Assembly (NCBI RefSeq): GCF_048403405.1
Contig: NZ_CP183129.1
Reading direction: 5' to 3' (one strand)
Length of the DNA: 64,000 bases
Source of the DNA: Escherichia coli
GTDB taxonomy: Bacteria > Pseudomonadota > Gammaproteobacteria > Enterobacterales > Enterobacteriaceae
Shown here: positions 60,101 through 63,100 of the stretch, one piece after another
How positions within the stretch are numbered: the stretch's first letter is position 1
Layout of the letters: every line of letters starts with the position of its first letter
Position numbers: made by a program

Positions 60101-63100
60101 TTCCCGTGACTTATTTCCGTATTAATCCTGTTCTGGCGCTGCTGCTGTTGCTGACGGCAATCGCAGCGGCGCTGCCGTTTATCAGTTACGCGCCTAATCG
60201 TTTAGTTTCGGGTGAGGGGCGTCATCTCTGGCAGCTGTGGCCGCAAACGATCTGGATGCTGGTGGGCGTTGGTTGCGCCTGGATGACAGCCTGTTTTATT
60301 CCCGCTAAAAAAGGCAGCATTTTTGCACTCATTCTGGCGCAATTCGTCTTCGTATTGCTGGTGTGGGGAGCAGGAAAGGCGGCGACACAACTGGCACAAA
60401 ATGGCAGTGCGCTGGCGCGTACCAGCCTCGGCAGTGGTTTCTGGCTGGCTGCGGCGCTGGCATTGCTGGCCTGTAGCGATGCCATCCGACGAATCTCCAC
60501 GCATCCGCTGTGGCGCTGGTTGTTGCATATGCAGATTGCCATCATTCCGCTGTGGTTGCTGTATTCCGGCGCGCTTAACGATCTCTCGCTAATGAAAGAA
60601 TACGCCAACCGTCAGGATGTGTTTGATGACGCGCTGGCGCAACATCTGACGTTGCTGTTTGGTGCGGTGCTGCCTGCGTTAGTGATTGGTGTGCCGCTGG
60701 GCGTCTGGTGCTACTTTTCCACTGCGCGGCAGGGGGCGATTTTTTCTCTGCTGAATGTCATTCAGACCGTGCCTTCGGTGGCGCTCTTTGGCCTGTTGAT
60801 TGCGCCGCTTGCCGCACTGGTTACGGCCTTTCCGTGGCTGGGTAAGCTCGGCATAGCAGGAACCGGAATGACACCCGCACTGATTGCGCTGGTGCTCTAT
60901 GCCTTGCTGCCGCTGGTGCGCGGCGTGGTAGTCGGCTTGAACCAGATCCCGCGCGATGTGCTGGAGAGCGCCAGAGCGATGGGCATGAGCGGGGCGCAGC
61001 GATTCCTGCATGTTCAGTTACCGCTGGCGTTACCGGTATTTCTGCGCAGCCTGCGGGTGGTGATGGTGCAAACTGTAGGTATGGCGGTGATTGCGGCGTT
61101 AATCGGTGCAGGCGGTTTTGGTGCGCTGGTTTTCCAGGGGCTGCTAAGCAGTGCCATTGATTTAGTGTTGCTGGGGGTGATCCCGGTAATTGTTCTGGCG
61201 GTGCTTACCGACGCGCTGTTCGATTTGCTTATCGCACTGCTGAAGGTGAAACGTAATGATTGAATTTAGCCATGTCAGCAAACTGTTCGGCGCACAAAAA
61301 GCCGTTAACGATCTCAATCTCAATTTTCAGGAAGGGAGTTTTTCGGTGCTGATTGGCACTTCTGGCTCCGGCAAATCCACCACCCTGAAAATGATTAACC
61401 GCCTGGTGGAGCATGACAGCGGCGTGATCCGCTTTGCCGGAGAAGAAATTCGCTCGCTGCCAGTGCTGGAGTTGCGCCGCCGGATGGGCTATGCCATTCA
61501 ATCTATTGGCCTGTTTCCCCACTGGAGCGTGGCGCAAAATATTGCCACCGTGCCGCAATTACAAAAATGGTCACGGGCGCGGATTGACGATCGTATCGAC
61601 GAATTAATGGCGCTACTGGGGCTGGAGCCAAATTTGCGTGAGCGTTATCCGCATCAGCTTTCTGGCGGTCAGCAGCAACGTGTGGGAGTGGCGCGCGCAC
61701 TGGCTGCCGATCCGCAAGTCTTACTGATGGATGAACCTTTTGGCGCACTGGACCCGGTAACGCGCGGCGCGTTGCAACAAGAGATGACGCGCATTCACCG
61801 TTTGCTGGGGCGCACTATTGTGCTGGTCACTCATGATATTGATGAGGCGCTACGGCTGGCAGAACATCTGGTATTGATGGATCACGGTGAAGTGGTGCAG
61901 CAGGGCAATCCGCTGACGATGCTGACTCGTCCGGCGAATGATTTTGTCCGCCAGTTTTTTGGGCATAGTGAACTGGGTGTCCGCCTGCTTTCGTTACGTA
62001 GTGTGGCGGATTACGTGCGTCGCGAAGAACGGGCAGAAGGTGAGGCACTGGCAGAAGAGATGACGCTACGCGATGCGCTCTCCCTGTTTGTCGCGCGGGG
62101 ATGCGAGGTGCTGCCGGTGGTGAACACGCAGGGCCAGCCTTGCGGCACGCTGCATTTTCAGGATCTGCTGGTGGAGGCGTAAGCGTATGAAGATGTTGCG
62201 CGATCCGCTGTTCTGGCTCATTGCTTTGTTTGTGGCACTGCTTTTCTGGCTGCCTTACAGCCAGCCGCTGTTTGCTGCCTTGTTCCCACAACTGCCACGA
62301 CCCGTTTATCAGCAGGAAAGCTTTGCAGCTCTGGCACTGGCTCATTTCTGGCTGGTGGGAATTTCGAGTTTGTTTGCGGTGATCATTGGTACTGGTGCCG
62401 GAATTATTGTTACTCGCCCGTGGGGCGCGGAATTTCGCCCACTGGTGGAAACTATTGCCGCCGTTGGGCAGACTTTTCCGCCCGTTGCGGTGCTGGCGAT
62501 TGCCGTTCCGGTGATTGGCTTTGGTCTGCAACCCGCGATTATCGCCTTGATCCTTTACGGCGTGCTGCCCGTCCTGCAGGCGACACTTGCCGGGCTGGGA
62601 GCGATTGATGTCAGCGTGACAGAAGTTGCGAAAGGTATGGGAATGAGCCGTGGTCAGCGACTGCGTAAGGTCGAGCTACCGCTGGCGGCTCCGGTGATTC
62701 TGGCGGGCGTGCGAACTTCGGTGATTATCAACATTGGTACGGCGACGATTGCCTCAACGGTAGGGGCCAGCACGCTGGGTACGCCGATCATCATCGGGCT
62801 TAGCGGATTTAATACCGCGTATGTGATCCAGGGGGCGTTACTGGTGGCACTGGCGGCGATCATTGCAGACCGCCTGTTTGAAAGGCTGGTGCAGGCGCTT
62901 AGCCAGCACGCAAAATAAAGGTATAACCTGCGAGCATGACGCCACCAATTCCGCCTAACGCCATAAACAGGAACAGGGCGATGACCCCAATTTTAGCTAT
63001 GCGCATAATGCACTCCTTATGTTAACGAAAGGATTGTACAGTAAAGCGCATTTGTTAACGAATCATTAAATGCCGAGTGGGAAAATATCATGGCCTTGTT

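Follow-up and report, generated by a model that had tools for sequence, protein, structure and literature searches.

The stretch analysed here, called the window below, comprises 64,000 nt of Escherichia coli contig NZ_CP183129.1 and carries two genes for small membrane proteins, yohO and yohP. These genes, the neighbors of yohO, and the sites surrounding them are as follows.

49659..49742, minus strand: yohP coding sequence, 27 residues, MKIILWAVLIIFLIGLLVVTGVFKMIF, a single-helix small membrane protein
49749..49753, minus strand: yohP Shine-Dalgarno sequence AAGGA, 6 nt 5' of the ATG, read from the sequence
49773..49778, minus strand: candidate yohP promoter, -10-like TATACT in the context CCTATACTTAT, read from the sequence
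62187..62918, plus strand: yehW, the final permease gene in osmF-yehYXW, an operon for a glycine betaine ABC transporter (ORF list and RefSeq)
62899..62918: convergent overlap of the yohO and yehW coding sequences, 20 nt, involving both 3' ends
62899..63006, minus strand: yohO coding sequence, ATG start, 35 residues, small membrane protein (UPF0387), predicted single helix
63013..63018, minus strand: yohO Shine-Dalgarno sequence AAGGAG, 6 nt 5' of the ATG, read from the sequence
63033..63038, minus strand: candidate yohO promoter, -10-like hexamer TACAAT (family consensus TATAAT)
63020..63062, minus strand: two copies of TTCGTTAACA, at 63062-63053 and 63029-63020, flanking the -10-like hexamer on both sides
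63066..63797, minus strand: mlrA, 5' of yohO, with 59 nt between its stop codon and the yohO ATG

The 35-residue minus-strand reading frame described in the initial annotation appears in the ORF list with its ATG start. The 27-residue frame is equally present, and lies on the minus strand, a point left unstated before. Good Shine-Dalgarno sequences had been claimed for both, and each gene has one; the AGGAG core is kept in nearly all of 78 orthologous yohO loci. The proposed match to K-12 small proteins proves to be one of 100% nucleotide identity. The yohO gene is b4542 of MG1655 (YP_588460.1), with 0 differences in the 108-nt coding sequence and the 60 nt upstream identical as well, and yohP is b4679 (YP_002791249.1), with 0 differences in 84 nt, in a strain that is not K-12 and shows about 97-98% identity to it across the surrounding 17 kb. 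K-12 has the mlrA / yohO / yehW order and the 20-nt overlap too, without difference. It likewise shares the order dusC / yohP / mdtQ, an organization also described in PMC12719787. The flanks of yohP differ from K-12 by one substitution in 80 nt upstream and two in 120 nt downstream, and mdtQ is intact in the window but a pseudogene in K-12.

A match to annotated small proteins, whose absence the initial annotation had named as refuting, is found for both genes in RefSeq and in NCBIfam models. In strains whose sequence equals that of the window, RefSeq labels the genes "protein YohO" and "small membrane protein YohP". YohO scores 80.1 bits, above the cutoff of 57, with the NCBIfam equivalog model NF010225 (PRK13681), and positions 1-35 of 35 are covered; YohP passes the equivalog model NF011345 (67.3 bits, cutoff 58) and Pfam model PF25659 (50.6 bits, cutoff 27). 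YohO is assigned to Pfam PF27791 in precomputed tables; a Pfam search with its sequence gave no significant match, and PDB sequence searches with YohO and with YohP gave none at all. We put at about 0.97 the probability that both frames are genuine, already annotated E. coli small inner-membrane protein genes, and found nothing contrary to either identity. Both are already known, from the K-12 reference annotation, RefSeq, and curated family models; our literature search found no paper naming the two together.

The case for YohO as a protein was examined in a YehW-anchored sample of 80 enterobacterial species. Of these, 79 have a yohO homolog in syntenic position, intact in 78 as an ORF of 34-37 residues; 78 of the 80 retain the start codon, Shine-Dalgarno sequence, and length. 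Among 5,426 complete E. coli genomes, 5,423 also contain the region. In a set of 77 distinct orthologous sequences, the annotated frame has a pN/pS of 0.27, whereas the shifted sense frames give 1.16 and 2.82 and the antisense frames 1.21, 0.43, and 2.38. Entropy by codon position is 0.55 (first), 0.20 (second), and 1.19 (third), so that third-position variation dominates. Residues M1, K5, M15, A16, G19, G22, V23, M24, L25, G27, and Y28 are invariant, and the glycine-rich core essentially so. The sequence has a GRAVY of 1.58, and an AF2 model predicts a single transmembrane helix, modeled over residues 3-34 with a mean pLDDT of 93.3. The protein has been detected by top-down MS (PMC12529367), and the ribosome footprints suggested earlier as a check exist in published form, as Ribo-seq coverage in the correct frame (bioRxiv 10.1101/2020.05.05.079178); for membrane association, that preprint refers to Hemm 2008. 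The reading frame is very short and lacks a significant Pfam match, as might a chance ORF in the mlrA 3' untranslated region or in sequence antisense to yehW. We nevertheless reject a non-coding reading, whose probability is vanishingly small, on the frame-specific selection described above; retention of start, ribosome binding site, and length, the equivalog model match, and the MS and Ribo-seq observations also oppose it. YohO is clearly a real protein, translated and under purifying selection.

The spacer between mlrA and yohO contains conserved elements. The -10-like hexamer is conserved in an upstream alignment of 79 distinct sequences, and equivalent -10-like hexamers are also present 5' of divergent yohO homologs that have other upstream genes. 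Both TTAACA blocks beside the hexamer are at least 90% conserved across genera. The upstream TTAACA lies 14 nt from the -10, and hence does not represent a canonical -35. The upstream block, CGTTAACA, is kept even in a locus (L096) where metG takes the place of mlrA. Because the -10-like hexamer is conserved and the promoter block persists when metG replaces mlrA, yohO appears to have its own promoter within the 59-nt spacer. A simple promoter scan made no call at this candidate site, and neither it nor a simple terminator scan returned anything meaningful at yohO or yohP.

The TATACT 5' of yohP resembles what we take to be a sigma-S type -10. Such an element fits the stationary-phase induction reported for yohP (PMC12719787). 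According to published experiments (PMC12719787, PMC7549839, PMC12542507), YohP is a single-helix inner-membrane protein that builds up during stationary phase, when oxygen is limiting, and in minimal medium. It is recognized post-translationally by the signal recognition particle, is inserted via SecYEG or YidC, and dimerizes. At high levels it brings about a non-lethal drop in membrane potential in which the proton motive force is partly dissipated, and this drop leads to phage-shock and stringent responses, condensation of the nucleoid, and "metabolic silencing". A repeat adjoining yohP, at 49357-49496, scores 30.2 bits against the TwoAYGGAY RNA model RF01731, for which the Rfam gathering score is 43. 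The assignment was rejected, as the score falls below the gathering threshold and other copies lack a match: neither an inverted copy of the repeat (L084) nor a copy between lysO and aqpZ (L097) matched TwoAYGGAY at E <= 0.1.

The convergent overlap of yohO with yehW, earlier put at about 20 nt, is exactly 20 nt in the window. All 78 intact loci have an overlap, of 14 nt (n=1), 17 nt (n=2), 20 nt (n=33), or 26 nt (n=42). A terminator scan and RNA folds revealed no convincing intrinsic terminator between the two genes; the folds were not stabler than those of shuffled sequences, with z = -1.29 downstream of yohO and -0.58 downstream of yehW. Because the coding sequences overlap tail to tail and no convincing terminator separates them, full-length yohO and yehW transcripts must share an antisense stretch of 20 nt or more. 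The antisense arrangement had been anticipated, and the pair is among 165 convergent excludons of MG1655 found by RNA-seq analysis (PMC12288877, Table 1). It belongs there to the core excludome, made up of pairs that recur in 50% or more of 58 RNA-seq samples. As in other convergent excludons of that study, a convergent pair has overlapping transcripts; unlike in overlaps of untranslated regions only, the coding regions themselves overlap, with mutual exclusion and dependence on RNase III only putative.

It is possible, though doubtful, that the locus is chiefly an RNA-level feature, in which convergent transcription and the antisense 3' overlap would make yohO and osmF-yehYXW a mutually repressive excludon. 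The conserved overlap, the lack of a convincing terminator, and the core excludome membership would suit such a role, as would the one species without yohO (L078), where yehW ends in a canonical hairpin and T-run terminator. The excludon designation, however, follows almost automatically from overlapping coding sequences, and PMC12288877 gives no functional test of yohO-yehW. Divergent yohO homologs show a gap of 0 nt or 11 nt instead of an overlap, two lineages retain yohO without yehW, and purifying selection on the protein sequence indicates that yohO is more than an antisense RNA.

Linkage to the transporter was followed in both the YehW-anchored sample and a second sample of 10 contexts of divergent YohO homologs, obtained by a profile search of a representative library. 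The yohO gene is directly convergent to yehW in 79 of 80 species in the first, and a yehW-type operon adjoins it in 8 of 10 contexts in the second. The other flank in those eight contexts holds mlrA, a ferritin gene, a DinG-like helicase gene, EamA, metG, a TonB-dependent receptor gene, or an HTH regulator gene. Adjacency to mlrA falls from 75 of 80 enterobacterial loci to 2 of 10 divergent contexts, and the flank opposite yehW changes at least six times. The modest addition made here is that yohO stays convergent to osmF-yehYXW while the genes on its opposite side change. The entire osmF-yehYXW operon has been lost in two lineages (P0028 in L090-92 and P0015 in L099-101); their yohO is intact, has the conserved core, and adjoins bglX.

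Because the yehW linkage is kept while the opposite flank changes, YohO may be functionally tied to OsmF-YehYXW, as a permease modulator or through convergent transcription or antisense interference, a tie we hold to be rather unlikely. Accessory small proteins have precedents in KdpF with KdpABC and AcrZ with AcrB, and the same linkage might suggest that YohO serves as a lineage-specific subunit, accessory or regulatory, that binds the YehW or YehY permease. That narrower proposal is decidedly unlikely. Two lineages keep an intact yohO after loss of the transporter, the convergent genes are not co-transcribed, and few independent contexts were sampled. The overlap, moreover, leaves no intergenic DNA, and a rearrangement would damage one gene or the other, so adjacency could persist neutrally. 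A search for YohO interaction data found none.

The YohO helix has an invariant face, M15-A16-x-(G/S)18-G19-I-(G/S)21-G22-V-M-L-A26-G27-Y28, which we infer to be a small-residue GxxxG or glycine-zipper-like packing surface. YohO would act by helix-helix association within the inner membrane, its partner being either another YohO or a larger membrane protein; the invariance of the small-residue packing face makes this the most likely mode of action, judging from sequence and by analogy. AcrZ, MgtS, and MgrB act in this way. Characterized modulators among small membrane proteins, summarized in PMC12719787, include AcrZ with AcrB, MgtS with MgtA, and MgrB with PhoQ. AcrZ, MgtS, MgrB, and YohO are alike in having one transmembrane helix (predicted, for YohO), fewer than 50 residues, no plausible catalysis, and a conserved helix face. 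The first three have known partners, whereas YohO would be placed in the same functional class by inference.

A different activity for YohO would be that of a membrane-perturbing peptide, in the manner of YohP or of a type I toxin; it would have no specific partner, and the membrane potential would fall as it accumulates. YohO does resemble YohP, in its similar size, its single helix, and its flanking positive charges (K5 and R/H33), and PMC12719787 raises the question of similar effects in other YohP-like small membrane proteins. We consider this activity quite improbable for YohO. An invariant, specific motif within the glycine-rich helix points to specific packing instead of a generic disruption of the membrane, and recovery of a YohO overexpression clone from the ASKA collection in a growth-based screen (PMC10299036) argues against strong toxicity. 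Nor does yohO have a dedicated antisense sRNA locus or repeated copies such as typify type I systems. Only the 3' end of the yehW mRNA runs antisense to yohO, and near yohP no Rfam sRNA scored at or above threshold. A type I toxin-antitoxin assignment was rejected for both genes because these comparisons gave no dedicated cis or trans antisense sRNA for either. For the function of YohO, a verified E. coli small protein, starting points for experiment are the invariant glycine-rich face, the apparent promoter of its own, the tight but non-obligatory linkage to osmF-yehYXW, and the retention of yohO after loss of the transporter.

Both genes were missing from the ORF track, as had been pointed out, for the sole reason that the track applies a 60-residue cutoff, which conceals real genes. 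We scored the 537 ATG-initiated ORFs of 20-59 residues within the 64-kb window for a strong Shine-Dalgarno sequence and for a GRAVY of at least 1.5. Three have the former, six the latter, and two, yohO and yohP, have both; 20 shuffles produced 0 ORFs combining a strong Shine-Dalgarno sequence with high hydrophobicity. Over this window, the two properties together picked out both true small membrane protein genes with 0 false positives.

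Two short hydrophobic open reading frames preceded by good Shine-Dalgarno sequences had been reported by the initial annotation and tentatively matched to the K-12 small proteins YohO and YohP. That observation is confirmed and its interpretation supported: both frames are present, and both are already known, annotated genes. They appear in the ORF list for the window together with yehW, the last permease gene of the osmF-yehYXW glycine betaine ABC transporter operon.

62899..63006, minus strand: yohO, 35 aa, ATG start
49659..49742, minus strand: yohP, 27 aa, protein MKIILWAVLIIFLIGLLVVTGVFKMIF
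62187..62918, plus strand: yehW

The position and length first given for yohP hold, and its minus-strand orientation is a detail added here. In each gene a strong Shine-Dalgarno sequence (AAGGAG for yohO, AAGGA for yohP) is followed by the ATG 6 nt further on. The window contains 537 ATG-initiated ORFs of 20-59 aa, among which three have a strong Shine-Dalgarno sequence and six a GRAVY of at least 1.5; exactly two, yohO and yohP, have both, while 20 shuffled windows yielded none. Their earlier omission is a product of a 60-aa ORF cutoff rather than of biology.

The window reads in the opposite direction to MG1655, and its identity to K-12 is about 97-98% across the 17 kb that were compared. 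Its two small genes match K-12 yohO (b4542, 2215657-2215764) and yohP (b4679, 2228982-2229065) at 100% nucleotide identity. In strains identical to the window, RefSeq carries annotations for the two genes, in the orders mlrA / yohO / yehW and dusC / yohP / mdtQ. YohO scores 80.1 bits against NCBIfam model NF010225 (cutoff 57), and YohP scores 67.3 bits against NF011345 (cutoff 58) and 50.6 bits against Pfam PF25659 (cutoff 27). The yohO region is found in 5,423 of 5,426 complete E. coli genomes, and a yohP match in 5,422. No model in the local Pfam-A copy matched YohO; precomputed tables label it and all its homologs PF27791, UPF0387_membrane, and the two resources represent different Pfam versions.

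Conservation of yohO was followed through 80 syntenic loci anchored on YehW, one per species, spanning Escherichia, Citrobacter, Salmonella, Enterobacter, Klebsiella, Kosakonia, Cedecea, Buttiauxella, Pantoea and others. A YohO homolog lies just past yehW on the opposite strand in 79 of the 80, as an intact ORF of 34-37 aa in 78. In the locus from Citrobacter amalonaticus AUH_CA_2023_1 (about 3260-3290), an extra T in a T-run shifts the frame, which may be a long-read homopolymer error in sequencing or a real pseudogene. Enterobacterales bacterium CwR94 is the sole YehW-anchored species without yohO; there, yehW is followed at about 3225-3265 of that locus by a canonical hairpin terminator (AAAAAACGGGGCCGTAGCCCCGT plus a T-run), a type of terminator absent after yehW in species with yohO. 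No convincing intrinsic terminator was found after yohO or yehW.

Pooled Nei-Gojobori pN/pS for 77 distinct nucleotide sequences is 0.27 in the annotated frame, and 0.26 for codons outside the yehW overlap. Other frames give 1.16 and 2.82 (shifted sense) and 1.21, 0.43 and 2.38 (antisense). Entropy at codon positions 1, 2 and 3 is 0.55, 0.20 and 1.19. This pattern marks a protein kept by purifying selection. Residues M1, K5, M15, A16, G19, G22, V23, M24, L25, G27 and Y28 are invariant, and the core reads M-A-x-(G/S)-G-I-(G/S)-G-V-M-L-A-G-Y. AlphaFold2, run on the YohO alignment, predicts a single continuous helix over residues 3-34 with a mean pLDDT of 93.3. The family is narrow: searching 1.84 billion representatives with a profile gave only 39 matches, many of them frameshifted or chimeric gene calls; PDB searches returned no relative.

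YohO is a translated, conserved protein predicted to form a single helix. It has been seen by top-down mass spectrometry (PMC12529367), and Ribo-seq coverage of yohO is in the correct frame (bioRxiv 10.1101/2020.05.05.079178); the same preprint cites Hemm 2008 for its membrane association. In an ASKA overexpression screen YohO was a first-round hit only (PMC10299036), and a Shigella anaerobiosis/FNR RNA-seq table lists yohO with a value of -2.96 (PMC4229854). The literature search found no functional study of YohO. The protein would reside in the inner membrane, with positive charge at both helix ends (K5, R/H33), and its invariant face of small residues would most likely mediate helix-helix packing, whether between copies of YohO in a homo-oligomer or with a larger membrane protein as partner. 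AcrZ, MgtS and MgrB, small membrane proteins that have been characterised, act in this way.

The mlrA stop codon lies 59 nt upstream of the yohO ATG. The upstream alignment shows the following conserved elements, along with the yohO Shine-Dalgarno core AGGAG, and a repeated 10-mer.

63033-63038: TATAAT-like hexamer (TACAAT in E. coli)
63058-63053 and 63025-63020: two TTAACA blocks
63062-63053 and 63029-63020, minus strand: two copies of the 10-mer TTCGTTAACA, bracketing the -10-like hexamer

Across enterobacterial genera, conservation of both TTAACA cores is at least 90%. The upstream core sits 14 nt from the -10-like hexamer, too close for a canonical -35; the TTCGTTAACA pair could be a 5'-UTR element or a site bound by a regulator. 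Where divergent homologs have other genes upstream, a -10-like hexamer precedes the ATG by 25-40 nt in each, and one comparison locus (L096), with metG in place of mlrA, keeps the E. coli-type promoter block. From these alignments we infer that yohO has its own putative promoter; a simple promoter scan made no call at this candidate.

The initial annotation had also proposed that yohO and yehW overlap convergently by about 20 nt, with transcripts antisense to each other. By coordinates the coding overlap is exactly 20 nt, and the antisense arrangement is correct and already catalogued: the pair is one of 165 convergent excludons of MG1655, seen in at least 50% of 58 RNA-seq data sets, in a study that reports no functional test of it (PMC12288877). 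The genes overlap in all 78 intact loci, by 26 nt in 42, 20 nt in 33, 17 nt in two and 14 nt in one.

Reverse anchoring on ten divergent YohO homologs shows how far this linkage extends. Eight lie tail to tail with a yehW-type permease in an OpuAC / BPD_transp / ABC_tran / BPD_transp operon, with a 20-nt overlap in six, abutting ends in one and an 11-nt gap in one. The opposite flank in these eight contexts is mlrA in two, and otherwise a ferritin, a DinG-like helicase, EamA, metG, a TonB-dependent receptor or an HTH regulator. In two further divergent lineages, P0028 and P0015, the whole osmF-yehYXW operon is absent, and yohO, intact and with its glycine core conserved, adjoins a bglX homolog (L090 4001-4108 and L099 3501-3608, respectively). 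Linkage of yohO to yehW is thus much more stable than linkage to mlrA, but not obligatory. Such stability could mean that yohO is functionally tied to the OsmF-YehYXW transporter, at the protein or RNA level. Neutral persistence is also available as an explanation: where gene ends overlap, no intergenic DNA separates the two, and a rearrangement that parted them would damage one of them. Given this explanation and the small sample of independent contexts, the functional tie is only a minority possibility.

YohP builds up in stationary phase, in minimal medium and when oxygen is limiting; it enters the membrane post-translationally via SRP and SecYEG or YidC, or through mRNA targeting, takes a mainly Nout-Cin topology and dimerises via a glycine motif (PMC12719787; PMC7549839; PMC12542507). 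When abundant it reduces the membrane potential, switches on the Psp and stringent responses, and leads to nucleoid condensation and "metabolic silencing", while yohP deletion increases sensitivity to ciprofloxacin and oxidative stress (PMC12719787; PMC7549839; PMC12542507). Its mechanism is most likely as published. A -10-like element lies at 49773-49778 (context CCTATACTTAT). This candidate presumably resembles a sigma-S type -10, in keeping with the induction reported for YohP. A weak match to the AgvB (anti-GcvB) sRNA model just downstream of the yohP stop codon (49576-49636, minus strand; 22.9 bits, gathering score 56) is most likely due to chance.

The dusC-yohP spacer contains a repeat of about 270 nt (49348-49616) that RefSeq leaves unannotated. 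E. coli genomes carry a median of 3 copies and up to 8; the repeat is also present in Klebsiella, where a single chromosome can have it in up to 13 places. A further copy occupies the lysO-aqpZ spacer of E. coli TUM11352 (L097 3001-3165), on a "plasmid"; the plasmid records that carry it resemble pieces of chromosome. Similarity to the window breaks off 2 nt past the yohP stop codon in about 2,000 of 5,422 E. coli genomes. One of these, strain 95-3322, has the spacer element inverted (L084 355-626, 89% identity) with both flanks different. The repeat folds (49357-49496, plus strand) into a long outer stem around two hairpins with loops AUGGAU and AGGGAU. This fold is like that of a TwoAYGGAY RNA, and the repeat aligns end to end with the model (RF01731). 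Its 30.2 bits fall short of the gathering score, 43, and neither the inverted nor the lysO-aqpZ copy gave a match at E <= 0.1; that assignment was rejected. On the other side of yohP, the outer membrane efflux protein gene mdtQ (49966-51402, plus strand) is an intact ORF, annotated as intact in matching strains, unlike the mdtQ pseudogene (b2139) of K-12 MG1655.
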